Below, in pieces: positions 7,429-37,515 of a DNA stretch of 37,515 nucleotides. Each line of letters begins with the position of its first letter. The stretch's first letter is position 1. The notes under the pieces were generated by a model. That model saw only the letters and a program-made list of their open reading frames with translations. It did not search any database and was not told where the DNA came from. Where the stretch lies: assembly GCA_003990765.1 (NCBI GenBank), contig RBNJ01000189.1, positions 1 through 37,515 on the forward strand, in the 5' to 3' direction. The stretch is from Jimgerdemannia flammicorona (Eukaryota). Made by a program: the position numbers and the translations under genes.

Positions 7429-8439
7429 AAGCCAAGAGACCATCCTCGGACCAGTTGTTATAATTGTAGAAGATATGGAAAGACTTGTGGTATCCTCTCT
7501 AAAGTTTGCCAGAAGTTGAACCCATTGACTCCTGACTTACTTTTGAGAAAAAAGCCTTATGACAATTCCCATCAGTTGGCTGTTGCTGTGGTCAGATGTG
7601 CTGCTAGGTGCTGAGTGTTGTGAGTGCTGAATGTGTTGAACAAGTAGAATGTATCATAAGTACTGTGTATATATATCTGTGAATAATAAATAAATTATAT
7701 AAGCCACCAACAATTATGAACCTAATTTTTTTTTTTTTAATCAAATTGGATCTCAATTTGATTTGAACATTTCAAATCAGATCTCAATTTAATTTGAACT
7801 CAATTTAAATTGAAAAATCCTCAATTTAATTCAATTTGAATCACCCTCAATTTAATTCAATTCAAATTAATTCGATTCATTTGGGAGCACTAATAGATAT
7901 ATCTCTAATAAATTAATTATTATCTTCTTTGATAATTTTGAGTAATATACTACTACATATAAGAACTCTATCAGTATATCAATAAGTAGCTCTAATACTA
8001 TTTAGTCTCTAAGAACCAGTAAAATTCACAACTATTAATTATACTGAAAATAATAATATAATAATACTAATAGTATAGAAGATCTGATTGTAAGATATCT
8101 ACTATATAGATGAAATCAAACAGACTCTAAAAGACTAACTCAATACCATCTATTAAGAAATGAATGAAGATCTAAATATTATAACAGTGACCTCAGAATA
8201 GTAATATTATTACATGAGACAGTCTTTTCTTACAAATCACCAGATCAGAGTATAAGAAGATCATATAGCATAACTTATCCAGGCTACAAGACAAGCAATA
8301 ATAACCAATCATAAGTCATGATAACTATAAGATAGATATCTCAAGAAATATAAAAGAAGAACCAGAAAACCATAGTAATAGCAACTCAAACAAGACTTAT
8401 AAAATCTTGAAATGGTTTAAAAGACTCACTATAAATAAA

Positions 8440-9514
8440 ATGTCTGCTGTTTACTAAACTATAGGTTCAGGAATCACTGAGGTTTCTCAGTCTAAAAAAG
8501 GATATTCCAAGACATCAGGAGAACTATAAGAACCCATACCAGAAGGATTCCTAGCCTCAACTTGAGTACTAGTGACTCTTATCACTTTACCCTCTACTAT
8601 TATAAAATGGAGACAAGGACTACTACTGCTATTGAAAATCTCTAGATATGGCAGAAATACAAAATAAGAACTTTCTCTACCAGGAATTCCCTCAGACCAG
8701 TTCCCAAGAGATACAAGATATTACCTCTATGAATGTATATAAATTGAGGGTAGCCAAAAAGATCCATCAGATCTTCAGACATATATCTTGGTCAATCTCC
8801 AACTTAGAGTATAACAGAGTCTCAGACTTTAAGGAATTGTCAGCTCTTTTTTTTAAATAAAAGACTGTCAGACTGTGCCATCCTCCGTGCCGTATGCTTG
8901 AAAAATGCAGGCAAGATCATCAACTGCTGCAACACACGAGCTCCGAAGAACAGATGCTATGACACACTTCCCTCAAAGAAAGAGACACTACTAGTCATCT
9001 ACTAGCCTAAACTGTGTGTCTATGTTGGAAAACAAAGACAGGTGACGTACTGTATACAGATCCTGTAAAGTATAGTCGATGAGGAATTGTCAGCTCACTA
9101 TATAGATGTATTAGAGGTCATAGTGTCTACAGAAGCCCAATTCACTATTACTCTCAAAAGTAATAAGATAGAAGAGTTCTGAAATCTCATCCTTCAGGAC
9201 AATCTAGATCAATTCCTATAAGAATTAATCTCAGTATTCCAAGGCCCTGATATCCCCCTCAAGATTCCACCTTTGTTCTCTACTTTATAAAGGAAAATAT
9301 TATAGATTAGAGAGCCCCTGATCTCCTTCTTACTACTATCAAACATAATGATGTCACTAGCAATGATATCATCTCACTAATTGACATATATGAAATGAAT
9401 AAAACAGAAACATTCACTGACCTTATTTCCTTTGAAGACATCTTGTCTCCAACCTCTAGTCTTGATAATAGTGATGAAGATAAAGCCCTCAGAATTTTGA
9501 ATATTCTACTCTAA
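8440..9514 (+). pseudogene. LTR-encoded ORF of unknown function, copy 1 (interrupted by the U3 retrocopy)
   Basis: ATG at 8440, TAA at 9512-9514. Length is 825 nt after removing the 250-nt insert plus TSD. Peptide QEFPQTSSQEIQDITSMNVYKLRVAKKIHQIFRHISWSISNLEY matches copies 2 and 3. Confidence 0.7.
8847..9081 (-). ncRNA. U3: U3 snoRNA processed retrocopy (probably non-functional)
   Basis: Minus strand reads ATCGACTATACTTTACAGGATC (GAC box, box A' TACTT, box A), then TAGATGA (box C'), TTGATGATC (box C), GGATGGCACAGTCTGAC (box D), then TTTTATTT and A8. Flanked by 15-bp TSD AGGAATTGTCAGCTC (8832-8846, 9082-9096). Confidence 0.85.
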
Positions 9515-11089
9515 TTTGTTTATATAACTATTTATTTGAACACTTGAATGTTCTGATATTCTAACTTTATATAACTATTAGAAATTATTCCAGCATTCTG
9601 ATCTTATACAACTAATTATATAGATACTCAAATTTGTACTTACATACAACTTGAAGTTTTCTATATTCAAATATCTTATTTAGTTATCAAATTTTATATT
9701 TAGCTTTATATATAAATACCCCTCTCATTTCTTCAAAATAAAGTCAGTATTAAAACACTCAAGTATTCAAGTACCCAACTACTTAAGAAGTATAAAAGTT
9801 CCAGTCCTCTACTCAATTCTATATAAGTAAATCTAAGAGATAACAGAATAGTTTAAAGATAAGAAGTTTGAAGACTATAAGATCTTAGAAAGGTACTCTA
9901 ATAGAACTTACTTATAAGAAACTTATAATTGGTCTAAGAGATACATCTTGAAGAGAATCTGACATACTTAGAGAACTTAGCACTTACTATATGATAATAT
10001 CTTCTATATCTAAATCTGCTATTAGATATTCTTGATCAATTATAATGATGCTATATACATATTAGAGATCAAGTAATTGAAACAATCTTTATGAAAGGAA
10101 TTTATCCAGAGATAGTTATAGTAATTCAATTAATACTAATAGTTCTATACTTAGTATGGAAGGTGATATATATATGCTCAGCAATATTGAATAGCTAGAT
10201 ACCCTTAAGACCATATAATAGAGAGAGCCATAGAAGTCAGAATTGAAGTATTCAAGGTAATTAGTATAATTTTTACAACCATATTTAATTAAAACATATT
10301 TCAATCAAAGACTATAGAATAATAAAGAAACAGTGATCTTATGGAGAAACTTATAAAGAAGTTTGCTAAAATAACTATTTATCTGAGAGATATAGTAAAG
10401 GAAATTAGATAAAGAGATTATTACTTAGTTCAGAAGTTTGCTATCATTATAGATAAGAAGAGAGAAACCTATTATACTTATAGAGAAGAAGGCCACTACT
10501 TCTATAAATATATAAGTGAGACTAAGTATAAGGTCTAGCTAAGTAATACTATTAAAAACTACAAACAGATCAATATTATCATCTTTAAAGAGATTGGAAA
10601 TTCAGAGAAAGAAGAAGAATGAAAATCTTATCTAGTTCTTATCTCTAAAAAAGATATCTATTAGAAACTCTACAAGAGATCACTAGGAAGACCTAAGAAG
10701 AAAGCAGTGAAATAGTCTATAGAAAGATAAGTAGAAGTACTCACAGAAATCAAAACTATAGCCAAAAAAATGAATCAAAATATAGAGTTTAAACAAAAAG
10801 TTAAAGATATGTATCATCTGAGGTAATACTTCTACTAGTGAAGAAGAAAAGAAGAAGAAGCTATAAAAGAATAAGATCTTTAAATATAATATCTTCAAGA
10901 ATCTTAGCTAGCAAAAAGTCAATATAACCTTTGGAAAGTTAGCAGAAATCCTCATATTCAGATAACAAATAAGACTGGAACTTGTAAAAATAGTTAAAGA
11001 TCAAGAATGAAAGATAGTTAAGACCAACAATATATAAGAGAATTCAGGTAAAGAAGTGAAAAAGATAGCTATAAGATCTCTATTTATGC

Positions 11090-12793: not shown

Positions 12794-12836
<43 letters not shown>

Positions 12837-12899
12837 TAGTTACTTGGACTCCTTCCTTTATTAATACACCTGTCTATCCTCTATATACTACACAGTGCT

Positions 12900-15800: not shown

Positions 15801-16994
15801 TAAACATTAATTTTCAAAATGTAATAACTCAACGAAAACTCATCTAAATTTAACATATTTTAGCTTGTCAGATTCACCATATTAATGTGATTCTAACAAG
15901 CTATAGTATGTTAGATTTGGATGAGTTTACGCTGAGTTATTGCATTTTGAAAATTAGGGTTTAAATCAGACTCTCAATTTGATTTAACTTTTGATTTGAT
16001 TCAAATTGATTCAAATTAAAAAATCCCCAATTTGATTTGACTCATTTAACCCTCAATTCAATTCGATTCAAATTGATTTAACTCATTTGGGAGCACCACC
16101 AGCTCCTCTCCAATAAACCTTTGCAGCCTTCTTCAGCCTCATCCAATAGATACCCACAGAAGAACTCTCACATATCTAGTCAGTGATCTTCACTTAGATG
16201 TCTTCCACCCATAGATCCCACAACCCCTTCTCAGCCAGCAGGGAGGAGTTAAGGTGCCAATGTCTGGGTTCATCTCCACTCTCTCCAAACTGCCCCTGAT
16301 CTAATAGCCTCCAGTGATCAGACCATAGGCACCACTCCCCCTCCAAAGTCCTCCAAACATCAGTATTCCAACATTCAGTTGTCAGAATCCAGTCAATCCT
16401 CATACCCAGTCTATTCACCTAGTGTATATAGACCCTCCTGTCACCCCACTCCATTCTACCCATATCCTGTAAGGAGTAAAGGTTCTCCACCTCCTCTCAC
16501 TTATCCAGACCACCACTCCTCCCACCCACACTTCTCCCTCTATCAGTTCTATCCATCTATAGATCCTGTACCATATTAAAGTCACCTCCCAGAACATCAA
16601 TACCTTCCTCCAAGAGAATACCTTCCTTCAACAGATCTCTAATCCACTCAATCTGCTCACTCCTAACTACAGGGCAGTAATAGGAGCTAACTCTCACTAA
16701 TTCTCACCCAGGTTGATGCCAATCTCCCCAGACCAAATGGTCACCCCAGCTCTTGATTCTGTCCAAATCTCCTCTACCCTTCCTTACTAGAATCATCACT
16801 TTGCCAGTCCAAGCCACAGCTCCTCCCCATTCTCTAGTCCACTCTATCTGATCTTTCTCATCCTCACACCATACATCCTGCAGTAAAAAGAGATCAGCCT
16901 CCAATCCCCTAAGCTAGGTAAAAATGTTCTTATGCTGTCCAGAACCCCTTAACCCATTCACATTTAGAGAGAAAATATTAGTTGTACTGTTCAT
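12900..16994 (-). pseudogene. LINE-a ORF2 (APE endonuclease plus reverse transcriptase), with stops
   Basis: MNSTTNIFSLNVNGL, FLLQDV, RIDWIL, WSDH, PGEDGLP, NWRPIMLLDMDRK, EQWGFVGGR, FADD, GGLGLVDF. 3' end approximate. Confidence 0.9.
15675..16098. mobile_element. 424-bp hAT MITE inserted in LINE-a ORF2
   Basis: TIRs TAGTGCTCCCAA / TTGGGAGCACCA match the 3314-7892 element. Perfect 8-bp TSD CCAGCTCC (15667-15674, 16099-16106). Confidence 0.95.
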
Positions 16995-17025
16995 AAGAAA
17001 TAATGTTGATTAATAGTCTCATTCT

Positions 17026-19044
17026 CTACAAATCTACATTCAACTCCTCCTGTACTAAATCCAAGTTACATTCTGCTGCTAGTTCCTTCTCTTTCACTGC
17101 CTGTGCCTCCAACCCAACCAGAAGTTCAGCCATTGCTCCATCCTCTTTTTCCTCAAAGTTCTCATGATACTTCAGGCAGACCTCCTGCCAGAGTTGCAAA
17201 CCATGACACTCTGCCTAACAGTAAGTCACATATTCACCAGCAATGACTGCCAGCTCAGCCTCTCTCTCTGCATAAACCTCATAACCCTCCTCCTCTAGGA
17301 GAATTGCAAGTATCTCTGCCTTCAGTGCCCCCACTATCCCATCTCTACACATAATCTGTGTCCAATACTCCTCAGGTATCACACACAAGTCCACTTCCCC
17401 CAACTCCTCAGCTACAAAGTTATCCATCATCTTGCTCATCTACAGCAAGTTCCCCACCTCCTTCCCTTCTGATATCTCTGGTCTTCCTGCATCAAGCATT
17501 GTGGTGTCTGCTCCCACACTGGCTGTCTCATCCCATCTCTCCTCTGGGACATCCACCAGCTCATCCTCACCAACTGCCACCACCTGTCTACCTTTTGCCA
17601 TGTCAGGAACCCCAAAGTATATCCACTGAGCACCTCTCATCAGCACATCCTCTACCACCTGACTCCTTACAGCTGAATCCCTCCGGACTAGAGGGGGAGT
17701 ATCATCTATGACCTGTTCCCAGACCTCAAACATACCATCTACATATGGGTCTATGTGTGGCATCTTCTTCTTCCCCTCTAGGCCCTCCTCTACATCTCCT
17801 CCACCCTTACTAGCCCAGATACTCACCTCTATCCCCTCAGCCTTCTTAGTGCCCCCAGTCTTCAACTTCATCCCTTCTTTCATTCTTACCAGCAGCTCTC
17901 TCTGTCTCTTCCACCCTTGAGCCCTCTCTCACTGCCTCTTGTCAGTGCAAATATATTTCCCATCAACAATCTCCAGATGTATTGACTTCTTATACAGCTT
18001 TCATGCCTTTGCCTGCTACTCTATAGCTCCACTCATCTCCTCTAGAGCCTCCAACAAATCCTCCTCCTCCTCTTCACTCCCTTTCACCCTTAATACTTGA
18101 CAGCTGAAAGCCCCCCAAAGTATCACTACTGGCCAGTCACTCATCTTCCCCATGGCCTCCTTTTCTGTCAGTTGAATCCTGATATCAACATCTCCTATCC
18201 TGATGGAGTTTCCTCCCAAATCTGGAAATCAATATTCACTACATCACCATACTCAGCCATCACCTCCTCAACTCTTCTCCTCGTCTCAACTACTGTCACT
18301 ATAGGCACCCCCTTTACCAGCAACTGAATCACCCTGGGATCCTATCTCAGACAATATACCATAGAGACCACTACTTCCCCAACTATCACTCTAGTCTTTA
18401 GAGTCTCATTTAGTATATATATCTATCTCCTCAAAGGCCACCTCAACCCCCTCCAGCCCCTTCAGAAACTTCACTCTAGCCACCTGCTTTGAGATAAGCC
18501 CCAGGACCATCCTAGCTATCACTGCCAAGCTCCAGAAGTACAAGATAGCCACAAACTCCAAAATTGACTTCTTGAGTAATGGTGCTACTGCCAGCCCCAT
18601 CACACCATCTGCCAGGTCCCCCTTCCATATTGGGAACCCCTGCCCCACCTTGCTATCAGCCATCATATCTCTTTTTTTTTCCTGATTCCCTATCACACTT
18701 CCATCAGCAGTCTCACCCCCAGCCACAGTATCTCTAGCCCCTATACTTCCACCCCCAGCCTGAGTATCTCCCCCTCTCCCAAGACTCATCTTGTCCTTCC
18801 CCTCTGCAGCACCAGCCCTAGATCTAGTCAGCCACCCACTCTCCTTCACTTTGTCTGCAAAGCTTAAGAGGTCAGGCCCCCCCCCATTGCCACTGGATAC
18901 TTGTTCACCTCCGGAGCCCTCTCTGCCCTTCAACCCTCCAAAGGCCCCCATCTCTAGGCCATAACTTCTCCCCACATTCAGCCAGCTGAAAGCCCCAGGT
19001 CCACCCAACCTGATATGCCCATCAGAACTCTTACTCGATGACAT
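17026..19044 (-). pseudogene. LINE-a ORF1
   Basis: Lies upstream of ORF2. Fragments 18406-19044 and 17440-17883 are homologous to LINE-b ORF1 (VARVKFLKGLEGVEVAF vs VAGVESLKFISSAEAVEIGF; EDELVDV shared). Confidence 0.75.
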
Positions 19045-20254
19045 TTTTATAGTACCTTTTCTCTAAGTTGTGTCGAAAACCATTGCTTGAAGTTGGTGTA
19101 ACATAAATTATACAGGAGAAAGGTGCAGCTTGGAATATGTAATATCTCAGTAAGTTTTTAGAAAATAATAAACAAGATCTTCTGGAAAAATATAAGAAAA
19201 TAGATGATAGTTTATATAGATAATATAGTTATCTATAGTAAGATATTTAAGAAATATCTAAACTATATTTATCAAATTCTACAGAAACTGAGAGATCATA
19301 GCCTATTTATTAAGTCAAGGAAATATAAGTTTAGAGAAATTGAGATTTTCTATCTTAGATATATCATCAATTAGAATAAAACCTATATAGATCCTATTAA
19401 GATTTAAGCAGTTGAAGCCTATTCAAGACTTACTATAGTTATTAAAACTCAAGTCTTTATAGAACTTACTATCTATTATAAGAGATTTATCAAAGTATTC
19501 TTCAATATTGTAGATCCTATCTACAATTTTTTTAAAAAAGATACCAAGTTTTAATAAACTGATAAATAATAATAAACATTTAAATATCTCAAGGTCTGTT
19601 TGACCCAGGCACCCATCTTAAAGAGATCTGACTGGTCTCAAGAGTTTATCTTATAGACAGATGTAAGCTCAATTGAACTAGAAGCTATTCTTGTATAAAA
19701 GTAGATTAAGATCAAATATATAATTATATATTTTAGCTAAAAAAAACTCACAGAAGAGAAAGAGAATATGAATCCTATAAGCTAAAGTATGTATCTCATA
19801 GTTATCTGAGCTATAGAAAGTTCCACTACTACCTTACTAGAAGATACTTCATCATCCTGACTGACTATTCAGCTCTTACCTGGTTGTTAACTATAAGCTA
19901 ATCTAAAGAAATATTTATCAGATAGATTATAAAACTGCAAGCTTATAATATATACAACTATGATATACTGTCCAGAAAGAACCAATATCAATATTAGTGC
20001 TCTGAATGAGCTGATCCAGATCAGATTTATTTGAATGGTAACTTGATATTGTCACATAGTGGTCGCTGAGTCCTTCAAATACACCAGATTCTCTTCAAGA
20101 TGTATCTCTTAGACTAACTCAAGTTTGTTATAAGCAAGTTCTTATTGGAGTGCCTTCCCAAGGTCTTATAGTCCTCAAACTTCTTATGTTTAACTGTCTT
20201 GTTATCTCTTAGATTGCTTGCAAGGAAGTATGTGTAAGTGAAACTGGAACTGAC

Positions 20255-20287
20255 TTTATTTCAGAGAAAATAAGAGGGGTATTTATA
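20255..20287 (-). promoter_or_regulatory. LTR-B TATA box (20280-20287) and poly(A) signal (20255-20260)
   Basis: Minus strand TATAAATA followed ~20 nt later by AATAAA. Conserved in all three LTR-B copies. Confidence 0.65.
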
Positions 20288-20526
20288 CAAAATACAATTC
20301 AATGGTTGCTAAGATATAAAGCTAAATATAAATTCCAATAACTAAAACTACTAAGTTCCAGAGTTGATACTGATGGTTGTACAGGTTCAGGATGCTGGCA
20401 TTATTTAGTGTTATATCAAAATGCCAGTACTGGAACAATTTTGCATCACCTCAGAATACCGGTACTGGCATTATCCAGTGTTACATGAGAATACCAGTAC
20501 TGGTATTATCCAGTATAACAAAGAAC

Positions 20527-21354
20527 TTAGAGCAGAAAGTTCAGGATCATGGGGGCTTCATCATCATCATCACTGAAGGAGATGAGATCCACAAATTTGT
20601 CATGTAGATCATGTGTTTCATGTACTTTGCATGCTTTGAGTATGTTACATGGGATGACATCATCAATGATATCATCACGTTCGGCTGTGGCGGGAAAATC
20701 GGGGACAAGGTCTAGAGCTCTCCAGTCTATGAGGTTCTCTTCCACAAAATAAGGAACAAATGTAGGGTCTTGGGGAGATCTAACCTGGATGCTTGGGCCT
20801 TGGAATACTAAGATCAATCCTTACAGGAATCGATCTGAGTTGTCCTGAAGGATAGGGTGCCAGAAGTCTTCTACTTCTTCACTGTTGAGAGTGATAGTGG
20901 ACCAGGCTTCTGTAGCCACCCTGGCTTCTAGTGCATTGATACAGTGGGATGATAGGTCTCTGAAGTCTGAGACTCTAACATACTCCAAGTTGGAGATCAA
21001 CTATGGTGCATGCCTGAAGATCTGATGGATCTTCTTAGCTGTCCTTGTTTCGCATATATCCATGGGAGTGGCATCTTGTAGCTCTTGGGTGCTGGCTTGT
21101 GGGAACTCCCAGCAGAGGAGGTTTCCTATTTCATACTCCTGCCACATTTGGAGGCATTCAATAGCAATAGTGATCCTTGTTTCCATTTCATGGTAGTAGA
21201 GAATGAAGTGATAAGGGTCTGTAGTACCCAGGTTGACACTAGGAGTCCTTCTTGAGCGGGTCCTCATGGCTCTTCTGATGTCTTGGAATATTCTTTCCTT
21301 GACTGAGATACCTTGGTGATTCCTTAACCTTGAGGTTTGGTGGGCAGCAGACAT
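20527..21354 (-). pseudogene. LTR-encoded ~275-aa ORF of unknown function, copy 2
   Basis: Track ORFs 21001-21354 and 20527-20817 share one frame (828 nt total). The two internal stops (TAG, TAA) are TGG and CAA in copy 3. Confidence 0.75.
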
Positions 21355-23234
21355 TTCGTTTGTAGTAAGTCTTTGAGCTATTTTGGGATTAGTGGTTCTT
21401 GTTAATTGCTACTACTGTGGTTCCTTGATCCTTCTTTTATATTCTTCAGGATACTTGTACTGTGGTCACAATGACTCACAGTTGGTTATCATTGCTCATC
21501 TCATATGCTATATAATCTTCTTGTGCTCTGATCTGGTGGCTTGCAAGGAAAGACTGCCTCTAGTGCTGATGTCATCATTCTGGGATCACCATTACAATAT
21601 ATAGGTATGTGACTTTATACTATATACTATTTTATCAGTTTTATATCATTTATTAGTAATATATAAAATATGCAACATATATATTTTGAATAAATTATTT
21701 CTTCTGTTCATTACAATCAATTATAAGCTCTGATTAGTAGCTAGAACTTCTCTAGTTTATATACTATACTGATGAATACAGGTATGAGCCAGAGTATTAA
21801 GATAGATATCTCTACAATAGTTCCCCAGTAATGGAAAATACAGTCTTATTATAAGAGAAGCCTACTAATAGTGATAATAAAGTCCTCTCTAGTGATAGAG
21901 ATAATTATCAAGATATCTACTTAGATGTTTATAGTAATTATGAAGTTCTCTCTAGTGGTAGAAGGCAATTATTAAGATGCCTGCCCAGGTGTTCAAGATA
22001 ATTATAAGTTCTTCCAGATAGCAGATGAAATTCTCTCTAGTATCAAGATAATTATAAAGCCCTTCCAAGTAGTTGTAACAATTATAATAGCAAAAATACA
22101 GCAAACAATATCAGTGATATAGTCAGCAATAAGACATAGCTAACAAGGTCAAGAAAGAGACCAATGAGACTGACAAGATCAGTAATATGGCTAGTAATAA
22201 GATATAGCCAATAAGGCCATAGAAAAGGCCAACAAGACCAATGAGGTCAGAAAGAGACCAATAAGCCCAGATGAGGTAAATAGTAAATAAGACCAATGTA
22301 AATGAACCCAAGCCCAATATGAAATATATAATCAACTATATGAGCAATGGCTCTACTATCAATAGTAACAAGTACAGATACTGCTAACAATATTTAGCAA
22401 AAATACCACATACTTTTACACTGATGAAAAGTAATAACATCGATAGTACAGATAGTTCTACCATTCAGCAAAAGCATAAATATAGTCAATAATAATGAAG
22501 ATAATATCTGGCTAATAGATTTCAGTATAATATAGTATATGATGCCACACTATATACATATACTAGGAACAATAACAGCCAGTGCTAACAATAACATATA
22601 TTTCAAAGGTATGATAATAACAACTGGCAATTATACTAACAATATAGCCAATATCAATTAAATAAAGCAATAACTATTAATAGCTCTAATGGTAATATCT
22701 TCAAAAAGCAACTTCAAAATAATAACCATTAACTACAGTACTACAAATAGTATCACATGAAGCCATAAATCCCTCCAACAGTAAGAAGTAAAAAAGACTA
22801 TAAATAAATACAGCTCTCTTATCAGAAATAACATTCATATCTTACATATAATAATATCTGTCAATAACATTAACAGTATTAAATTAAGCAGGAGTATATA
22901 GTTATCTAGCAAAGTCTAGTAGTTAATAATCAGATATTTTTTAGGCTCTTAAAAGCCTCATACTGTATATATATTTAACATTCACATTACTTCTTTATTT
23001 GTATTATCTATATGTATTTTACATTTTTTGTAAGTATTTTAGATATTTTGAAATACTTTTTGACTCACAAAAATTCCTTAGTTATAGGATTTTATAATTA
23101 TAATTCTTGGTTTACATGTAGTTCTAATTTTAATATATATTATTGCATTGCTTTTTTATTCTAGTTTATATTCTTTTGATATAGTTGATATTATTTTTTT
23201 TATTTTAGTATATATATCTCCTTGAGTGAGAGTA

Positions 23235-23360
23235 TTGAGATAGCAACTCAATATGTAGGCATATGACTTTATACTATATATTATTTCATCAGTTTTATAT
23301 CATTTATCAGTAATATATAAAATATATAACATATGTATTTTGAATAAATCACTTCTTCTG
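23235..23360. repeat. ~125-bp direct repeat inside the non-autonomous hAT (other copy is 20031-20049 plus 21601-21706, split by the solo LTR)
   Basis: GACTTTATACTATATA...TTTGAATAAAT..TTCTTCTG occurs twice. Confidence 0.8.
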
Positions 23361-25703: not shown

Positions 25704-26479
25704 ATATATAAGCTATATATTTTACTTTACTTTTTTTTAATAATTTTACTCTTATAATAATTTTACTTCTTTACTAATTCTATATTTTTAAAATAAAAAA
25801 TATTTTAAAATATATTAACTAATATTATTAGTAGTTATTATAATTTAATAATAAATATTATCATGTAGTGATCACTGAGTCCTTCAAATACACCAGATTC
25901 TCTTCAAGGTGTATCTCTTAGACTAACTCAAGTTGTTATAAGCAAGTTCTTATTGGAGTACCTTCCCAAGGTCTTATAGTCCTCAAACTTCTTATCTTTA
26001 ACTGTCTTTTTATCTCTTAGATTGCTTGCAAGGAAGTATGTGTATTATACTGAGAGGAACTGACTTTATTTCAGAGGAAATAAGAGAGGTATTTATACAA
26101 AATATAATTCAATAGTTGCTAAGATATAAAGCTAAATATAAATTCCAATAACTAAAACTACTAAGTTCCAGGGCTGGTATTATTTAGTATCACATCAAAA
26201 TACCAGTGCTAGAACAATTTCACGTCACCTCAAGATGCTGGTGCTGGCATTATCCAGTGTTACATGAGAATACCAGTACTGGCATTATCTAGTATAACAA
26301 AGAACTTAGAGCAGTCGAGAGACTTCTTTTGCTTGAACCATTCAGAGAGAGCTAAGCCATACAGACATCTTTCAGTGAAAGACAACACATTTTCAAGTTT
26401 TTATTTCGAACATACTGGTGTACATCATGTGGCGGGAGTCTACCTACAAGACACAACAAGTTTTAAGGAAAACTGTAAC

Positions 26480-28348
26480 ATGGCTAGTCAAGAGTCCTCT
26501 AGCTCTGAGCATCTGGAGAGGAGAAGGCCTGGTCTGGGGATCCCCAAGAGCTTTGCGGCTGCTACAGAGGCTGGGGAGGCTGCTGGAGGGATTGGGGGAC
26601 AAGGGAGGACTGGTGGGATTGAAGCCTGGTGTATGGTGATAGGGAATAGGAAGGTTGCCACTAGGCCCATGGGGGTGGAACAGGGGGGGCATAGTGTTGA
26701 CAGAGGGAGGGGTCAGGTGATAAGTCAGGTGACATGTCAGGTGGCTGGCAGGGGACAGAGATCTGGTGGTGTGACACGGGGGACTGGTTCTTCAGTAGCT
26801 GGGCAGGTGGCTGGGGAGAGGACTGCTGGTGGTGCAGCTGTGCCTGGAGGGACGACTACAAGTGTATCAGGGGCTAAGAGAAAGGTGACTCTGGTAGCTG
26901 GAACTAGCGAGTTAGTGGTGAGGCCCTTCTTCCACAAATCAGTATCAATGTGGGCAATCTTGGTGAACTTCCTGGGATTGGCAATATCAGCAAGGGAGGT
27001 TCTGAGGATGGTGGGGGAGGAAGTGGCTGGGGTGGAGTCTCTGAAGTTCATTTCTTCAGCAGAGGCTGTGGAGATTGGGTTTGTGGAGGAGGATGCAATG
27101 GTGAAGGCGCTGGAGAAAGAGATGACAGTCAAAGGTGTTAAGATTGGGATGGCGAGGTGTCTGAGGTGGAATCCATGTGCTGTTTGGCTGATGGTGGAAG
27201 GATTGCTGACCCTGGGCAGACAGGAGACCAAGAAGATGGTGGTAGAGGCACTGGGTGGATATGGTGAGATGGTGGACTTCGGGTTCATGTTCTGGGAAGG
27301 TACTAAGTTGAGGAATAGCAACTGCAAGGTGATGCTGTGACTGGAAGGCAAGGAGGCAACTGGGCTGGGCCGCGATTGGCCTGAAGGGATCCAGATTGGA
27401 GGGTGAGAGTGTAAGGTGTAGAGGAGGAAGGGGGCGGAACAGGAGGAGGAAGAGTTGGCAATTGCTCTGGAGGAGAGAGAGGCTGCCAAGGAGCTGTGGA
27501 AGAGGAAGTGGGAGGAGTACACCAAGGATTGAGTCTGGATCCAGGCAGATGGCAAGTGGAAGAGGTGGAGGAAAGAGAACTGGGAGCGTCTGCAGGCAGC
27601 CCTCCAAGGGGCAGTAGTGGAAGAGGAGGTAAGAGTAGAGGCCGCCAAGAATCAGATGGAAGGAGTAGAGGTGGCAGAGGTTTCCCTCTCCCAGCTGAGT
27701 GGTGTGGAGGACTCAGCACATGTGCCAGTGAGAGGAAAGTGGGCAGATAAGGAGGAGATTGGTGAGGGAGGCTTTGAGGTAGATAATGAAGTGGTGCCGG
27801 AGACTCAGGTGGAGGACACCTGTATGGCTGGGGTGGCAAATGTCCATTGGAAGTACCCAGAGGCTGGTGAGGTAATTCATTTGGAGAAGGTTGTGGAGGA
27901 GGATGAGTTGGTGGATGTGGCTTCTGATGTGTCGGCAGATAGGGAGCAACTGCAAGAGCTGAGCCGGACCCCCAGGCCTTTGACCTCTGGGCCCCTGGTG
28001 ATGACAGTGGAGAGCTGGTATCAGGCAGAGCTTAAGGAGCTGGCAGAGGAGGACATCAAGGAAGTGGACATGTTTCATAGGTCTCAGGAGGCATGGGAAG
28101 AGTTTCTCAATGTAGCGATACAAGGGCCTAAGCTGGTGACAGCCATGGTGGCTGCCCTTCTGGATGATGAAGGATATGATGTTGATGAGGGCAGGATGGC
28201 CGACATCTAAAAGGTAGTGACCGAGAGAGTGGATCTTTTCTGCAGCAGTGCAAATAGTGGTCGAATCTGGAGGGCAATTTGTGAAGACCAGTATGAGATC
28301 ATCAGAGGAAGAGTTGAGAAGGTGGTGGCAGTCCTAGCTGAGCTTTAA
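26480..28348 (+). pseudogene. LINE-b ORF1
   Basis: Starts MASQESSS at 26480, long G/E-rich frame with a few stops, homologous to LINE-a ORF1. Confidence 0.75.
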
Positions 28349-28360
28349 ACAATTTCCTTA

Positions 28361-31300
28361 ATGATGAAGAACAATCTATGTATTTTGTCGATCAATGTTA
28401 ATGGACTGCGGGATAGTGTTAAAAGATGGCAGCTGTTCCAATAGCTTAAAGTCAGGAGATATGATGTTGTGTTTCTTCAGGATGTTCGGGCTTATGGCAA
28501 GTCAGACTATGAGATGTAGAGTAAATAATGGTATGGTGGAGCAGGTTGGAATAAGCAGGTGGGTATCTTGGTTAGTGTGGGCAAAGGCAAGCTAGTGGAG
28601 GTAGAGATCTATGGTGATAGACTGATTTGGGGAAGGATAAAAGGAGGGACAGGTGACAGGTTGACAGTTGGCTCAGTTTACCTCCCTGTAGTTGGCAGAG
28701 AGCAAAAGCAATGGGTTGAGAGATGGCAGGCATGAGATGGGTGGGAGGAGGTTGTTTTGGACATTCTGGGGGGGGACTTCAATATGGTACATGATCGAAC
28801 ACTGGATAGGTCTGATGGTGGAGCAGGAGTTGCAGTATTCTCTGGACTTTCACAATGGCTTCAGGTGGAGTGTGATATGGGTTTGGTGGATGGCATTCAT
28901 CAATGACAGGGGGATAAGTTGGGACCCTTCACTCGGTGGCACCCAGTTGGAACAGTATTGGTTGGGACATGAATAGATTAGGTGCTAGTGGCAGAGTGCT
29001 GGGGCAATGTACTGGATACTGCCGAGGTGTGCTGGTGCCTATAGTCTGATCATTGGGGTGTGGAGGTTTGCGGTAGGTTCTAGGCGGCTGGCAGTAGTGG
29101 AGGGTACTGGCACCTCAATATAGCCCTACTCAAGAGGAAGCCGGAGAGGGATAACTTTGTGGAAGTTGTACAATGGAAAGTTATGTAGTGGTGCAATGAA
29201 GGGCAGTTGATAGCAGAATGGTGGGGTAAATTCAAACATTTGGCTGGGGCTTACTAGTGTGATGTTGGAGAAGTGGCTGGGAAGGAACAGAAGGACAAGG
29301 AAAGGAGAGTAGAGAAGGGGCTGCAATGGCAATTGAAGCTTTTGGAAAAGGGGAACCTGTCTGGAGAGGTGTGCTACAGATTGGCATTAGAGGTGACAGA
29401 GCTGCAGGCAGATTTGAGGGTGGCTGAGACCAGGGTGGTAGACAGCCTGCTGGCCAGGCTGTGAGTCAGATGGCTAGAAGAAGGAGAGAGGCTGACAAGA
29501 TATCTGTCCAGAGTTCTGAAGGCTAGGAGGGTATGGCATAGTTGGGCCTCAGTATTGCATGAAGATAGAGTGGAGGTCTCTGGGATTGCGGATATGTTAG
29601 GGGAGGTATCTGGTCAATGGCAAGCTCTTTGGCAGGATGGTAGGGAGTATGCTGAGGATTCTAGGTTTGGGGAGGATGATGACAATATGGTGACCAATTG
29701 GCCAGTGATAGCAATACCTGAGATTGGAGAGGCCGTCATGGGAGAGGTATCTCTAGATGAAGTATTGGAAGTACTGAAGAAGATATAGACTGGTTCATCT
29801 CTGGGGGAGGATGGGTTGCCCTGGAAATTCTGGAAGGAGTTTAAGACTGAGTTTGGTGGCTGGTTGGTGGAAATGACCAATGCTGTTCTGAAGGAGAGCA
29901 GCTGGATTGAGAATGGTTCCTTGGGGCTGGTCTCTCTTCTATATAAGGAAAAGGGAGATCGACGAGTGTGGCATAATTGGTGACCTATCATGCTGCTGAA
30001 TGTGGATAGAAAGCTGGTGTCAAAGATTCTAGCAGGGAGGATGTAGCAGTACATTGGCATGCTAGTTGGGGAAGAGCAGCAGGGCTTTGTCAAGGGGAGG
30101 CAGATTAGAGATAGTACTGCTTGAGTGTAGAATGTCTTAGAGGGCTGTAGGAGCAGGCAGGTAGATGGCCAGATGGTCTTTCTGGATCAAGAAAAGGCCT
30201 ATAAGAGAGTGCAGTGGAGTTATTTGGAGGCTGTTCTGCAGAGAGTGGGGTTTGGTATAGTAGAGGCAAGGTGACTGATGGGCCTGGTATGGGGATACTA
30301 AGCAGTGGTGATGATGAATGGATGGTGTGGACCAGAGTTTGCCTTGGGGCGAGGGGTACCACAAGGGGATCCTTTCTCTCCCCTTCTTTATGTACTTTCT
30401 CTAGAGCCCTTGCTAGTGTGGCTGAAGGGGTGGCTCTCTGGACTGCAGATGGGAGATGTGGTCTGGTGGTTGGGTGTCTTTGCAGATGACATGGTGGTAG
30501 GATTGGGTAGCTGAGAGGATGTGGAAGTCCTACAAGAAGGGGTTGGACAGTATGAGAGGCTGGCAGGGGCAAAGTTGAACTGGGGCAAGTGCGAGACAAT
30601 GAAACTAGGTGCTGGCCTGGGTGGATATGGACAATTTGGACAATTGGTAGCTACAGGGAGTACTGTCCGTTATTTGGGTATTTGGTTTTCAGTGTATGGG
30701 ACAGTTCTACCTAAGGAGTGGTGGTGTGGATTAGTTCAGAAGCTGGAAGGTATGCTGACAGGTTGGTCAGAAAGGAGCTTCTCATTGGTTAGCAGGATAG
30801 TGGTCTTGAATGTATATTGGCTGCCCAAGCTGTAGTATCTGGGTTATTATCTGGATTTTCTGGAGTGGGTGGTGCAGTAGCTGAAGAAGATTGTGGAAGA
30901 GTGGTTATAGTAAGGGAGGTGGCCACAGATTGGGTGGGAGACTTTGGTGATGAGGGCTTCTGATGGAGGCCTGGGACTGGTGGATTTCAGATGATGGCTG
31001 AAGGTACTTCAGGGTTGGTGGGGGTGCCGTATGATGGAACTAGGTGAGGAAGGTTGGAGCAGGCTGGCTATGGACAATTGGAAGGTCTGGTTCTGCCCTT
31101 GTGGTGAGGTTTGGAAGGATATGCGGGGTTTGCTGCAGGTTGGAAATGTAGGTAAACTGCAGTTTAAAGGGTTCTGGTGGGGTATTGTAGAGACCTGGCT
31201 GGCCATGGGGTTGACAGGCCCAGAGATAGAGGTGGACGAGAACCCTGAGCAGCGATGGTGGTGACTGGGAGACCTTTGCATTGGTGGCCACAGTCTGAAG

Positions 31301-33189
31301 GAGTACTATTTGATTAAGGCAATGGAATGGATCAGGTCTGGCCCACTGGAGAGATGGCCACCTGGTTGGCAGAGGGCTAGTATTGGTGAAGACTGGGAGT
31401 GGGGTCGAATTTGGAATTGGAGAGCCTCAGTATGCAAGATGGTACCGCTCAAGTACTGGGTGGTCTGGTGGCGATTTCTGAGATGTAATGTGATGCTGAG
31501 CTATTGGACAGACTGGATGGAGATCGATGGCTATCAGGACTGTGAGTGGTGTAATGAGGTGGATGGAGGGGCAAGTCTCTCCGCTACCTTACCAGTCACA
31601 AGGTTTGGTAGGTGACCTTCCAAGTCTCCTTTCCTCTAATATTACCCCCTCTACCTCAGGTTGGTTTGCTGTGCCTGTAGGGGCATGATGGGAGGAGGGC
31701 AATAGTGTTGAGTTGCTCCTTTATTGGTGTCGGATTGGTGCTTCCTCTACTTTTTTGCAAATTCTAGTGCCTTCAGCTATGTCTGGGGTATATCCGTTTT
31801 GGTGCAGCATCTTCTTCCTTTTGCCATTGCCAACTAGGAGTTGTCTCAGTATATCTCGGACTATGTAGGGAGTTGGCTGACCTTGGGCATCAAGTGCTCA
31901 GTATAGGTTACCTGCAGGTCCTTGGTACCTGTAGTGGGGCCCTCTGGCTTTGGCAAGTTTCCTGGTGAGTGTGGTTCTAGCATAGGTGACTGCTTTTCAG
32001 GTATTGTCAGGATGGGAGGGGAGATGGCCATCACAGATAGGAGGAAGGGTGATAATGGTAAACCAGTAGGGTGCCAGGCTGGGGGCGATCATTGGGGCTG
32101 GGGCAGGTGCTACTTCAGTGGGGCCTTTTGATTGGTGTGGTGCAGTTAGGTGGTAGGTGTCACTATTGGCTTCTTTTGGCAGTCAGTGGGATTGGGCCCC
32201 AGTCATCAGGGGGGGTCAGGAGGCCTGAGGCTACCCATTTCAGGCATCTTGGCTGCACTCAACTGGAACTAGGAGCTGACATGGCAACGTGATCGAGGCC
32301 CGCAGGCTTGAGTAGTGGGGTATTGGGGGTTTCCTCCCACCTCATGTATAAGTCCTTTACTTACCTTGACTGGGAGAACCAGGCCCTACCCACCATGTTG
32401 TGCTTTGATGAGGGTTTTTTCTTTGTCTGTCATTCTCTTTGGGGTGGCAGAGGCTATTCTATTCAGCTCAGGCATGACCTTGTACATACGTTGGGTTCTC
32501 AGGCATGCGCTTTCAGTCATTAGTATATGATTGGGTTTCCCCTGGTGGTAGGGAGAGCATGGTGCACAAAATGAGGTGTGGGCCTATTTGGCCCTGCTGT
32601 GCCTAGTATGATCAAGCTGCTGGACAATAGCTAGCCTAGGTTAATGAGGGAGCAGTGCTTGGTGGGTGGTGGGAGAGGGTTTTGGCCTATATAGTCTAGG
32701 TTCCCTTCCAATAAAAATCCGTGGAACATGAGTCCATTAAAAAAAAAAAAAGAGGTGGATAGAGGGGTTGTCCAGATGCCGGAGCATATCCTGGAGGCTT
32801 GCCCAGGTATGGAAGGGTTTTGGCAGAGTTTGGAAGATTACTGGGGCCCTGAGAGGCATAGAGCAGAGAATCCAACCAGTCTGGTGGTCAAGCACAGGCT
32901 GGTAGGGGAGATTGGTGATATTTGGGGTGGCCTAGGTCGAGTTTTGGGGGTCTGGGTCTTGATGGCAGCATATTGGCAGTGGATTTTCAAACAGGACCTG
33001 TGGATGGGGATTGGGGAGATAGTGGAGTAGTGGAGGTGGCTTCTCTAGGAGGTGGTTCAGGGGTAGTGGTATCAGGGGAAGCAACTTCAGCCAGGGGCCC
33101 TAAAGAAGGTATAGGACATTGTCCAGCAGAGTCAAGGATACCTAGTGGTTGATGATTGTAGAGTACAATGGAAGAAAGGAGTTGGCTGA
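28361..33189 (+). pseudogene. LINE-b ORF2 (APE, RT, C-terminal CCHC), with stops and a 1.2-kb insertion
   Basis: SINVNGLR, FLQDV, GGDFN, SDH, NW*PIMLLNVDRK, FLDQEKAY, GVPQGDPFSPLLY, FADD, and CEWC...EHILEAC split by the insert. Confidence 0.92.
31572..32751 (+). mobile_element. Unidentified 1180-bp poly(A)-tailed retroposed insertion
   Basis: AATAAA at 32710-32715, A13 at 32739-32751, 16-bp TSD GAGGTGGAT(G/A)GAGGGG (31556-31571, 32752-32767). Confidence 0.85.
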
Positions 33190-33282
33190 TGAATACTACT
33201 TATGTATATTATGTGATATTAGTAGTGAATTATGGTTCATTGTTATTGTATTAGATAGCTCGTAATAAAGGAGTCCATGTGA

Positions 33283-33319
<37 letters not shown>

Positions 33320-33320
<1 letters not shown>

Positions 33321-34123
33321 TAGAGCAGAAAGTTCAGGATCACAGGGGCTTCATCATCATCATCACTGAAGGAGATGAGATCTGCGAATTTGTCATTTTT
33401 GCGTGCTTTGATATTATGCAGGATGATGTCATCGATGACATCATCACATTCGGCTGTGGCGGGGAAATCGGGGACAAGGTCTGGAGCTCTCTAGTCTATG
33501 AGGTTCTCTTCCACAAAATAAGGAACAAATGTGGGGTCTTGGGGAGATCTAACCCAGATGCTTGGACCTTGGAATACTGAGATCAATCCTTGCAGGAATT
33601 GATCTGGGTTGTCCTGAAAGATAGGGTGCCAGAAGTTTTCTACTTCTTTGCTATTGAGAGTGATAGTGGACTGGACTTCTGTAGCCACCCTGGCTTCTAG
33701 TGCACTGATATGATGAGATGATAGGTCTCTGAAATCTGAGACTCTAACATACTCCAAGTTGGGGATTGACCATAGTGCATACCTGAAGATCTGATGGATC
33801 TTCCTAGCTATCCTTGTTTTGTGTATATCTATGGGAGTGGTATCTTATAGCTCTTGGGTGCTGGCCTGTAGGAACTCCTGGCAGAGGAGGTTTTCTATTT
33901 CATACTCCTGCCACATTTGGAGGCATTCATTAATAATAGTGATCCTTGTTTTCATTTTGTGGTAGTAGAGGATAAAGTGATAAGGGTCTGCAGTATCTAG
34001 GTTGACACTAGGAGTCCTTCTTGAGTGGGTCCTCATTGCTCTTCTGATGTCTTAGAATATCCTTTCCTCGACTGAGATATCTTGGTGATTCCTTGACCTT
34101 GAGGTTTGGTGGATAGCAGGCAT
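33320..34123 (-). pseudogene. LTR-encoded ORF, copy 3
   Basis: ATG at 34123 to TAA at 33320-33322, 804 nt, a net 24 nt shorter than copy 2. Its stops fall at different codons from copy 2. Confidence 0.72.
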
Positions 34124-34365
34124 TTTGTTTGTGGTAAGTCTTTGAGCTATTTTGGGATTGGTGGTTCTTGTTGGTTGCTGCTACTGTGGTTCCTTGATCC
34201 TTCTTTTATATTCTTCAGGATGCTCATACTGTGGTCACAATGACTCACAGTTGGTCATCATTGCTCATCTCATATGCCATATGATCTTCTTGTGCTCCAA
34301 TCTGGTGGCTTATAAGGAAAGGCTGTCTCCTGTGCTGATGTCATTATTTTGGGGTCACCATTACA

Positions 34366-34375
34366 TCTTCCTCCT
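34366..34375 (-). other. Polypurine tract of Gypsy B
   Basis: Minus-strand AGGAGGAAGA immediately precedes the TGTAATG LTR start. Confidence 0.8.
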
Positions 34376-34713: not shown

Positions 34714-37515
34714 TCATGTTTTGCTTCTCTTGTTAGGTTCATGGTACTTCTTGAGTCTGTTCCTATGTACTGTGGTAGACAGTATGGTCTCTGAGATTTT
34801 TCTAAGCCAGAAGGTAGTTCCCTTGATATCTTGCACATAGAAGAGTCCTTTCCATTTGGGCTTCAGTTTTCGTGACCATGAGGCTTCTACCATATTTCAA
34901 TACAGTAGAATCTTTTCTCCAATTTGAATGGGTTCTAGGGCCTTGTGATTCTTTTCTGCATTCTTCCTTGTCAGTGCTTGTGACTTGGTGATGTAATCTT
35001 CAGCCTTCTTCCTGATTTGGTGTAGTCTCCGGATTTCTGCATCAACCTATCTCCAAGTTAGGTCTAGATTTGTGGCTGAGGTTCCATTAGAATCTTCTTC
35101 TCTGAAGAGCAGCTCTCTTGGGGTAAAATGTGTGCTCTGTGACCATATGTCTTGTAGAATAGAGAGAGCAGTTGGGAGATAGTTATCCCAATTCTCATAT
35201 GTCTCTGAGATCTTTGCTAGGATGTTCTTGAGGTTCTTGTTGGTTCTCTCTGTCTGTCCATTTCCTTGAGAGTGGTATGCAGTGGTCTTGATGTGCTGGA
35301 TCTTGTATTTCTGGTACATTATCTCATGGAATCTATTGACAAATTCTGTGCCACAGTCTGTTGTGATTTGCTTTGATGTCTTGTAGTGGCAGATGATTTC
35401 TTGGTATAGGAAATCGGCTATAGAGAGGGCATTGGCTTCTTGTAATACTTCTGCCTCTATCCATTTGGTGAAGAGGTCTACAATAACTATAATATAGCAG
35501 TTTCCTGATAGTGTTACTGGTAGTGGTCCAATGATATCCATTGCGATGTGGTGGAAGGAGATAGGCTCAATTCTTGATGATCTGGGTACCTGGTCTTGCT
35601 AATCTTGTTTCTGTTTTTGGTACTTGTCACACCCTTTGACAAATTGGCACAGGTCTTCTTCCATCTTGGGCCACCACATAGTTCTTCTTGCCTTGTCATA
35701 TGTGTTGGTTCCTCCTAAGTATCCTTGCTCGTATACCTCCTTCATTACTTGATACTTCTTGTGTTCGGGTATTACTAGCTTTCCTCCTTTTCTGAGTGTA
35801 GTGCTGTCTAATTCAAACTGTTTCCAAGTCTAGTTGATGATGGTGATTGTCCAGGGTTCAAGGTAGTTGGGCATCTTCCACTGCCCAAGATAGCTGATTA
35901 ATCCATAGTATAGCTCCTTATTCATGTTGAATAGTCTTGATGGGGATGTTTCGGGGTGTCCTTGGGAGTACATTGGTATTGGTATTGGTCTTTTCTGAGT
36001 GGTGCTTGACAGTACAGTCATATTCTTGCAGCCTGTAGATCTACCTGACATATATTCCTTTGGGGTTCAGAGTGTGGAATAGCCAGGCAAGAGCGGAATG
36101 GTCTATTTGAATAGTGAAGTGTTTTCCAGCTAGATAGTAGTGGAACTTGTCTACTGCCCAAACTACCACTAAGCATTCAAGCTTGCATGACTCGTAGTTC
36201 TGTTCCGCTCTGCGGGTACCTCAGTTTGCATAGGAGATGACATATTCATGTCCATCTTTCTTCTGAGCTAAGACCGCTCCAAGTTCTATAGCACTTGCAT
36301 CTGTCTACAGGATGAATTCTAGGCTCCAGTCTGGTCTTCTGAGGATGGGTGCTTGGGTCAACCTGGTCTTGAGTTCATTGAAGGTTTCTTAGTACTCCTT
36401 GGTCTATTCGAATTTGGTCTCCTTCTTCAGTAGCTCATAGATAGGTGCTGCAATGTTGGAGTATCCTTTGATGAATCTTCTGTAGTAGCTGGCCAGTCCA
36501 AGGAAGGCATAGACTTCTGTGGTCTTAGGTAGGCTGCAACAGCCTCGATCTTCATGGAGTCTGTGTAGATTCTGGTCTGGTTGATGAGGTGTCCTAGGAG
36601 GTGATTTCTTGAGCTGCAAACTTACATTTCTTGGGCTTGATATAGAGGCCATGCTCCTTGAGCCTCTTGAGGACTAGCTGTATGTAATTGACATGTTCCC
36701 ATGTAGTGTTGCTGAAGATGATCACATTATCAACATAGACAAAGAGCCATTTTCCAATCTCATTGCTGAAGACTCTATTCATCATTTGCTGGAAACTTGC
36801 TGGGGCATTGCACATTCCAAATGGCATTCGCAGATAGATATAGGTGGCATCAGGTATGATGAAGGCTGATTTCTTACTAGCATCTTAAGTGAGACCGATC
36901 TGATGGAAGCCTGAGAACAGATCCAAGGTGGTATAGTATTTGGCTTCACTTCCAAGGGTGGTAAGGATTTCTTGAATATTCGGCAAGAGCTGCCTATCCT
37001 TCTTGGTGATGGCATTGAGTTTCCTGTAGTCAATGCAGAGTCTTGGTGCAAACTCTCCAGGCTTGCTTCCTTTCTTTGGGGCAAGGACAATGGGTGAGGT
37101 CCAGGGGCTGATAGCTTGCTTGATGATTCCAGCTTCCTCCATTTCCTTGAGTTTGGCTCGCAGCCACTCTCTGTAGACAGGTGGTATGGGTCTGGCTTTC
37201 TGGTAGATAGGCTTGGTATCACCAGTGTCAACTTTGTAGTGGTACTTGGGTTCTTGATTGTAGATATCCCTAAAGTCTGTAGCAAGTACTCCTTTGTTCT
37301 GGTACAGGATCTTAAGAAGTTGTTCCTCCAGGAGAAAGTTTTCTCCAATGGTATATGTGTGCTTGTTCTGGTCCTTGTCTTTCTTGTACTCAAGTTCAGT
37401 AATCTTGGTGGTGGCATAGGCTCCTCTTCCAGTAGATCCAAAGCCTTGTTCTCCTCTCTTGGTCTTGATAAGTTCAGTGGCCTCTATGATCTTGGGCTTC
37501 TTGATTTCATGGATC
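34714..37515 (-). pseudogene. pol: Gypsy B pol (dUTPase C-terminus, RT, RNase H, integrase), with stops
   Basis: RGEQGFGSTG (~37428-37467), SPWTSPIVL, RLCIDYRKLN, LDLFSGFHQI, MPFGMCNAPASFQ, YVDN, FLGLASYYRRFI, MDIIGPLP, TDCGTEF, NGQTERTN, VHRNRLKKY. Stop at 34714-34716. Confidence 0.95.

Follow-up and report, generated by a model that had tools for sequence, protein, structure and literature searches.

To our knowledge, a gene that lies wholly within a terminal repeat is otherwise known mainly from mouse mammary tumour virus (MMTV), in which sag, an open reading frame (ORF) for a superantigen with a type II membrane anchor, occupies the U3 region of the betaretroviral long terminal repeat (LTR). 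Here we describe a comparable arrangement in a 37,515-nt stretch of Jimgerdemannia flammicorona DNA (contig RBNJ01000189.1, forward strand), the whole of which is referred to below as the window. Three decayed copies of an LTR of a Ty3/Gypsy retrotransposon, designated A, B and C, carry the same ORF in the window, and this frame is probably a selected, LTR-embedded accessory gene of the retrotransposon family.

Several other retroelements encode proteins with which the product of this ORF may be compared. The nef gene of the human and simian immunodeficiency viruses (HIV/SIV) and the tas/bet genes of foamy viruses encode small trans-acting proteins at the 3′ end of the genome, partly within U3. 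Foamy Tas is a nuclear protein of ~300 aa, with a C-terminal acidic activation domain and an internal promoter of its own. VANC, encoded by the Mutator-like VANDAL elements of Arabidopsis, is a family-specific trans-acting protein that counteracts epigenetic silencing by the host. According to one report (PMC3485330), ORF0 of the plant elements Retrosat2, RIRE3 and RIRE8 is located upstream of gag-pol, and according to another (PMC10309623), CERV of the Caenorhabditis elegans element Cer1 is a nuclear regulator that is required for export of the genomic RNA and is produced from a spliced internal mRNA. In a review of plant additional ORFs (aORFs) the wording "in/within/inside the LTR" occurs 0 times (PMC7264820). 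An LTR retrotransposon with a gene inside its LTR was not found in the full-text literature, a search that did not cover subscription journals and supplements; the papers retrieved on ORFs in LTRs dealt mainly with MMTV.

The ORF of the window resembles sag in being a complete sense frame of ~0.8-1 kb that is located, upstream of the presumed promoter, in an LTR longer than 1.3 kb; each LTR of an element therefore contains it, as does the 3′ end of the genomic RNA. This parallel had been drawn in a first-pass annotation of the window, and it is apt as architecture. The two systems differ in their carrier, which is here a Ty3/Gypsy retrotransposon with no env in view and not a vertebrate retrovirus, and in their products, since the protein predicted here is acidic with a basic N-terminus and has no sequence relation to Sag (no Pfam-A match at E ≤ 1 beyond noise). 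Unlike nef and foamy tas/bet (bel), which only overlap U3, the ORF lies wholly within the LTR, and its product shares neither sequence nor fold similarity with theirs; by analogy, foamy Tas provides the functional picture that we favour for it. In common with the plant aORFs (Retrosat2/RIRE3/RIRE8 ORF0) and CERV it is a lineage-restricted orphan ORF that accompanies gag-pol and evolves faster than pol, whereas those genes lie between the LTRs and this one in the LTR itself. The setting also recalls that of VANC, in that the transposon copies of the window show the CpG loss typical of methylated repeats; the analogy is functional only, and VANC, unlike the present ORF, comes from a DNA transposon and lies outside the terminal repeat. 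The architecture is that known from MMTV sag, and the protein, judged by its sequence, appears to belong to no known family.

The repeat and its carrier element

Self-blastn and a three-way alignment revealed a repeat of ~1.55 kb that is present three times in the window. The copies and the recognisable parts of the parent element are:

20044..21596, minus strand: LTR copy A, 1,553 nt, from TGTAATGG to AATATCA (self-blastn, alignment)
34365-33310, minus strand: 5′ part of LTR copy B, with the ORF (33316..34365 up to the insertion; self-blastn, alignment)
26315..33315, plus strand: insertion of 7 kb that splits LTR copy B, resembling a long interspersed nuclear element (LINE), with a 31-A tail, a 15-nt target duplication and weak RVT_1 matches
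25855..26314, minus strand: 3′ part of LTR copy B, with TATAAATA, AATAAA and U5 (self-blastn)
8172..10001, plus strand: LTR copy C, heavily decayed, ~70% identical to A (self-blastn, alignment)
34366..34375, minus strand: polypurine tract (PPT) AGGAGGAAGA, directly upstream of LTR copy B, abutting TGTAATGG
35050..35829, minus strand: integrase of the parent element (Pfam Integrase_H2C2 at 35829-35602, E 1.9e-14; rve at 35598-35050, E 1.7e-11)
36597..37514, minus strand: reverse transcriptase (RT) of the parent element (Pfam RVT_1, E 1.3e-18 and 6.3e-5), continuing beyond the window end

On the strand of copy B the domains follow one another in the Ty3/Gypsy order, RT, Integrase_H2C2 and rve, and the PPT is located immediately 5′ of the LTR. 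Copy B is therefore the 3′ LTR of a Ty3/Gypsy element that leaves the window at its right end, and the repeat is the LTR of an element with an RT-then-integrase order and a PPT, in keeping with the first-pass annotation, which had recognised three copies of a Gypsy LTR. The insertion in copy B is assigned to the LINE-type retroposons because of the 31-A run at its end and the 15-nt target duplication.

The LTR begins with TG in copies A and B and with TA in the decayed copy C, and copy A, whose 3′ boundary is precise to ~6 nt (20044-20050), finishes with ...ATCA. The contigs of two public sequencing runs (X1 and X3) leave copy A at two shared boundaries, 21596 and ~20049. Beyond 21596 they enter the polypurine sequence AGGAGGAAGA (three contigs in X1 and three in X3; consensus of loose ends), and beyond the other LTR end they enter sequence of the TGGTGCCC type (eight in X1, one in X3), which starts with TGG and resembles a primer-binding site (PBS). 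The match to this PBS-like sequence directly 3′ of copy A is weak (only ~9 of 15 positions). No tRNA gene was found in the window. In one soil-metagenome run (X1) the LTR has many relatives (2,003 pieces), and further ones occur in runs of two organisms. The integrase has a relative of 86% identity in an ENA metagenome; its closest named relatives, from plant elements, share 33-38% identity and are uninformative.

No element has both of its LTRs within the window, and no target duplication was found around copy A, sensitive blastn of its AT-rich flanks yielding low-complexity noise only. The first-pass annotation had further suggested that the ORF is spread by solo LTRs. This found no support: none of the window copies is demonstrably solo. 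Copies B and C are preceded by pol-3′/PPT-like sequence, and copy A is followed by the weak PBS-like sequence.

The embedded frame, its decay and its relatives

A complete sense ORF within the LTR was found, repeated in three of the three copies. It occupies nt 243-1070 of the 1,553-nt LTR, in the same orientation as pol, and its ATG and terminal TAA are common to A, B and C, as the first-pass annotation had reported; upstream of the ATG the frame stays open for 18 codons only. The placement of the ORF in the LTR is solid and, as it lies entirely within the repeat, it is therefore duplicated at both ends of every element. The individual copies are:

20527..21354, minus strand: ORF of copy A, 828 nt, 275 codons plus TAA, internal stops at codons 118 (TAG) and 178 (TAA); pseudogene
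33320..34123, minus strand: ORF of copy B, 804 nt, 267 codons plus TAA, internal stops at codons 24 and 93 (TAA) and 211 (TAG); pseudogene
8440..9515, plus strand: ORF remnant of copy C, 1,076 nt, seven in-register stops, indels of 1, 1 and 10 nt and a retroposon insertion
8847..9081, plus strand: retroposon insertion in the ORF of copy C, 235 nt, starting with a T run, with 15-nt direct repeats at 8832 and 9082

All three are pseudogenes. Copy B is shorter than copy A by deletions of 3 and 21 nt, and its stop codon sits within the target duplication of the LINE insertion. None of the five internal stops of A and B is shared, and each corresponds to TGG or CAA in the other copy, which agrees with what had been noted before. 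Copy C, read in the register of A, contains seven stops in 265 codons, besides the frameshifting indels of 1, 1 and 10 nt. The first-pass annotation had given the three spans as 825, 828 and 804 nt, all multiples of 3. This stands for A (828) and B (804) but not for C, whose span is 1,076 nt or, without the 250-nt insertion (235 nt plus a 15-nt duplication), 826 nt, which is not a multiple of 3, so the value of 825 nt was wrong. The 235-nt insertion is less decayed than its surroundings and resembles a short interspersed nuclear element (SINE) or a 5′-truncated LINE in reverse orientation.

Counting the terminal codon, the frame contains three stops in A and four in B, as against 9-27 in the other five frames over the same span and 16.5 predicted from composition for 275 codons. 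It is therefore no chance product; by base composition, the probability that 275 codons stay open is 4e-8. A tblastn search with nine family proteins showed no similarity to the ORF elsewhere in the window, the three LTR copies being the only matches at E < 0.01.

The ORFs of A and B differ at 82 of 804 aligned positions, by 80 transitions and two transversions. The observed/expected ratio of CpG is 0.0-0.23 in all repeats of the window, compared with 1.15 in the flanking gene-like stretch (1-2000). This transition decay and CpG loss, together with an even spread of the differences over the three codon positions, identify the copies as silenced, mutated relics, dead sequences that have accumulated C-to-T/G-to-A transitions ever since their insertion.

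Copy C was compared with the sites at which A and B agree, a comparison that takes in divergence from the time when the lineages were still active. Transitions at codon positions 1, 2 and 3 number 48, 32 and 74, respectively (p = 1.6e-4), and the changes opposing the direction of decay (A>G, T>C) number 8, 8 and 24. The transversions are weak evidence: 16, 10 and 14 for the whole ORF (p = 0.50), and 12, 3 and 12 for codons 1-215 (p = 0.05). The third-position excess between LTR lineages is a second, independent hint of a gene, given that A and B, under the same composition and mutation process, show a flat distribution. Among the 12 indels listed of 29 in the contigs, the only one located within the ORF is 3 nt long, and of the 11 others 10 have lengths that are not divisible by 3.

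Homologues of the ORF product exist outside the window. Among 5.8 billion proteins, a word-indexed search yielded 303 candidates, four of which are relatives (E 1.6e-133 to 4.9e-31), including P0004, an uninterrupted 271-aa metagenome protein that covers the whole query at 69% identity; in tblastn the ORF of copy A matches this intact protein over its full length (69% identity, E 4e-115). A profile search of 1.84 billion cluster representatives of any length detected five clusters, which makes the family tiny. Its members P0009, P0010 (342 aa) and P0011 share 47%, 41% and 29% identity, respectively, with P0004. The database homologues come from gene callers that report open frames only, and lie on JGI and ENA metagenome contigs of 778-2,375 nt.

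The full-length open homologues span 41-74% identity, with the amino acid conservation concentrated in blocks (WQEYEI, KKIHQ.FRH.P, LE..VA.E..S.I, W.P.LQDN.DQ.LQ and PQDP...PYF). They have a common N-terminus (MP..QT in P0010 and P0004) and a C-terminal end composed of DLISF, an acidic run and LNF (DLI.F/acidic/LNF across the family), and their length varies only in the linker that precedes this tail, with the frame preserved. No cellular homologue or fused form was found among the 1.84 billion representatives in the all-lengths profile search, and there were no relatives in viral contigs or prokaryote genomes. A single metagenome match, the only one of 250 pattern matches to pass tblastn (30% identity over 78 residues), was rejected as spurious; its surroundings look like those of an unrelated, AT-rich and phage-like contig.

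Copies A and B gained two to three stops at ~5% divergence each, and lineages that are 30-60% apart at the protein level are open, so the frame has been kept open. At the level of the family it appears to be a real, conserved gene that is dead in the window. The proposal of a conserved protein-coding gene of ~270 aa within a Ty3/Gypsy LTR, made in the first-pass annotation, is thereby upheld by intact homologues at 69% and 41% identity.

Such a frame might also be a mere passenger, that is, host or foreign coding DNA captured by the LTR, useless to the element and seemingly conserved as the active master copies are young. The orphan protein without a domain typical of transposable elements, the tolerance of LTRs for inserts and the lack of constraint in the window copies would suit this explanation, but we consider it unlikely: (i) neither the 1.84 billion representatives nor the 5.8 billion proteins of the word-indexed search yielded a cellular relative, (ii) the open frame, start, blocks and tail are conserved down to 41% and 29% identity, (iii) the divergence of the lineages shows a third-position excess and (iv) neutral DNA would gain stops at the rate seen in A and B, two to three per ~5% divergence each.

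Expression and properties of the predicted protein

Three candidate transcription signals accompany the ORF in all of A, B and C (coordinates of copy A):

21434..21441, minus strand: upstream TATA-like box TATAAAAG, LTR nt 156, 87 nt before the ATG
20280..20287, minus strand: downstream TATA box TATAAATA, LTR nt 1310, 240 nt after the stop
20255..20260, minus strand: AATAAA poly(A) signal, 27 nt past the start of TATAAATA, 267 nt after the stop

The survival of these motifs in the three copies is weak evidence, because A/T-rich motifs are immune to C-to-T decay. The downstream box TATAAATA is presumed to be the promoter of the genomic RNA. Its short distance from AATAAA fits a genomic RNA that would start at or just past the poly(A) signal, with the signal active only in the 3′ LTR, and a start at this site would assign the ORF to U3. 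The first-pass annotation had placed the ORF in U3, in sense orientation, upstream of the LTR TATA box and with an acidic tail. Its orientation, its acidic tail and its location within the LTR, upstream of both TATAAATA and AATAAA, were confirmed; the assignment to U3 is less firm, being deduced from motif positions, and a second TATA-like box, TATAAAAG, precedes the ATG by 87 nt.

We infer the expression route and the function of the ORF from its sequence context, and two routes may be envisaged. A transcript might start after TATAAAAG and end at the AATAAA of the same LTR, and would then be contained wholly in that LTR; or the ORF might be read from the 3′ LTR by way of a spliced or other subgenomic RNA, as in MMTV sag. 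Contig pieces of two runs (X12 and X15; guessed to be RNA, of uncertain kind) cover parts of the ORF and cannot show transcripts, starts or ends.

If TATAAAAG, and not TATAAATA, drove the genomic RNA, the ORF would lie in a long R/U5 region and would be the leading cistron, either of the full-length RNA or of a short transcript that terminates at the poly(A) site of the 5′ LTR. The location of TATAAAAG 87 nt before the ATG in three of three copies and that of AATAAA 267 nt past the stop would agree with such a leader position, to which we nonetheless give little credence, about as little as to a passenger. The second TATA box, TATAAATA, only 27 nt before AATAAA, has the layout of a start at or past the poly(A) signal (as inferred from the LTRs of retroviruses), an R region exceeding 1.1 kb would be uncommon, and a TATA hexamer is expected about once per strand by chance.

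The product may be described as an orphan protein of ~270 aa with a basic N-terminus, a mainly helical core and a disordered acidic tail with one or more hydrophobic-Ser-acidic motifs. Residues 1-45 are very basic (10 K+R, pI 12) and include RRAMRTR.RR, and the remainder of the protein is acidic (pI about 4-5). In the tail, DLISF is followed by an acidic run, and P0010 contains the motif three times (DLINFS, DLITFS and DLDIWSD). Such motifs may be likened to acidic activation domains and to phospho-regulated SUMO-interaction motifs.

In agreement with the first-pass annotation, which had recognised no domain, none of the 24,736 Pfam-A models matched P0001 or P0004, and nothing was obtained at E ≤ 1 besides noise, the sub-threshold hits being MetW (E 0.04, in P0002) and ATG5_HBR (E 0.028, in two of nine members). 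Pfam-A is assumed to contain the known retroviral accessory and regulatory families; as far as it holds them, there was no profile match to Sag, Nef, foamy Bel/Tas or similar families. A profile search of the PDB produced no match at E ≤ 10, and the ESM Atlas nothing notable (best feature score 0.83; pLDDT of the Atlas's own model 0.35).

The AlphaFold model predicts helices over residues 18-185, two small hairpins and an unstructured tail. Searches with this low-confidence model returned no match among 241 Foldseek rows against the PDB at E ≤ 0.001 and none among at least 500 rows of the BFVD fold search, and in the wide fold search VIA nothing rose above noise (whole model: best Z 4.5, a single long helix; core: best Z 4.2). 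As the models are of low confidence, these searches are uninformative about the true fold. About 14 of the 50 fold rows for the core model are helix-turn-helix regulators of the XRE/Cro/C-protein type, with a best Z of 4.2, below the noise level of the tool, and a pLDDT of 55; the helix-turn-helix likeness of the core is a lead only.

Tentatively, the product could be a trans-acting nuclear regulator of its own element, either an LTR transactivator or an anti-silencing adaptor. The basic N-terminus would then direct it to the nucleus or to nucleic acid, and the acidic tail would recruit a host factor. A transactivator or silencing antagonist had been put forward in the first-pass annotation, and no test in the present analysis lent it support. 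A bolder version of this proposal, which we regard as doubtful, is that the LTR forms a complete cassette in which the ORF is combined with a TATA box and a poly(A) signal, such that any LTR, even a solo one or the 5′ LTR of a dead element, could express an activating or de-silencing factor for the whole family.

Several observations weigh against an accessory gene under selection. The divergence between A and B is 0.102 in the ORF compared with 0.095 and 0.089 in the flanking LTR, and the differences are flat over the codon positions (29, 28 and 24). The NG86 ratio of nonsynonymous to synonymous substitution rates (dN/dS) for this pair, 0.60, was obtained under a 40:1 transition bias and is uninformative for that reason, and dN/dS without C>T/G>A sites has no power, as only two of the 82 differences are transversions. 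This lack of constraint between A and B is expected for dead copies, yet the window alone cannot show present function. The intactness of the database homologues is subject to ascertainment bias, because the gene callers report open frames only, and for P0009-P0011, known as protein sequences, a position in an LTR is only presumed. The upstream box TATAAAAG may mean nothing, given that a TATAAA-type hexamer is expected about once per strand of the LTR by composition. Finally, the AlphaFold pLDDT is 48 for the whole protein (nine-sequence alignment) and 55 for the conserved core, and no family, structure or fold was matched; the proposed function is built on composition and short motifs.

The extreme view, that there is no gene and that a chance or relic open frame in non-coding U3 is conserved at the nucleotide level for cis-regulatory reasons, could invoke the missing domain, the poor structure prediction, the tiny family and the neutral comparison of A and B, but it is already disfavoured and seems very improbable in the face of a 4e-8 chance of 275 open codons, full-length open homologues at 41-74% identity with amino acid blocks and frame-preserving indels, and a third-position excess, constraint at the nucleotide level predicting none of these signs of coding.

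Surrounding repeats and meaning for the family

The window as a whole is a nest of dead repeats beside one GC-rich gene-like stretch. The latter (441-1745, minus strand; 54% GC) contains a frame resembling flavin adenine dinucleotide (FAD)-dependent monooxygenases, in which two in-frame stops occur and the GDAA motif region is apparently shortened. Its best named relative is from Jimgerdemannia flammicorona (Endogonales; 46% identity over 47% of the query), and the ESM Atlas names the FAD-monooxygenase family only; the frame may be a pseudogene or an intron-bearing gene.

Large LINE-like insertions with weak RVT_1 matches and no mutual nucleotide similarity occupy 26315-33315 (plus strand) and ~12797-19060 (minus strand), the second adjoining a run of 37 T at 12797-12833. 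Both show an extreme strand asymmetry, in which G exceeds C on the sense strand (G 35.6%/C 15.0% and, in mirror image, C 33.7%/G 12.8%), with no matching A/T skew. Within the C-rich LINE-like element, a stretch of 271 nt (15747-16017) matches its own reverse complement at 81% and forms a palindrome.

A dUTPase fragment (11773-12075, plus strand; Pfam E 3.2e-7), in a CpG-free block of 27% GC, is probably what is left of a retroelement with a dUTPase, the orientation of which is unrelated to that of LTR copy A. In an AT-rich block near the T runs at 4042-4089, a frame with a BED zinc finger (3682-4125, plus strand; E 1.1e-4, just above the Pfam cut-off) is possibly the remnant of a hAT-type transposase. 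The AT-rich blocks by the LTR copies also contain direct repeats (2716-3169 versus 25275-25704, 81%; 21595-21707 versus 23249-23361, 90%), which may belong to further decayed repeat families or to the interior of the same elements.

Retrotransposon LTRs are regarded as control regions without coding function; they are masked in annotation pipelines, and extra ORFs are sought in the interval that separates them. If the reading of the frame as an LTR-embedded accessory gene is true, it would represent a second, independent layout of the sag type, in a Ty3/Gypsy element of a probable soil fungus, with the gene dose per element doubled and a copy left in every solo LTR. It would also raise the testable question of whether trans-acting regulators or counter-silencing factors are encoded by LTR retrotransposons themselves, as they are by complex retroviruses, and the orphan protein, with no family or predicted fold, is a target for structural and interaction work. 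Should the LTR also prove to be a self-contained cassette, the product would be a "public good" regulator dispersed by repeats, and the ORF would be the first gene to be described in the LTR of a Ty3/Gypsy element that is not a retrovirus.

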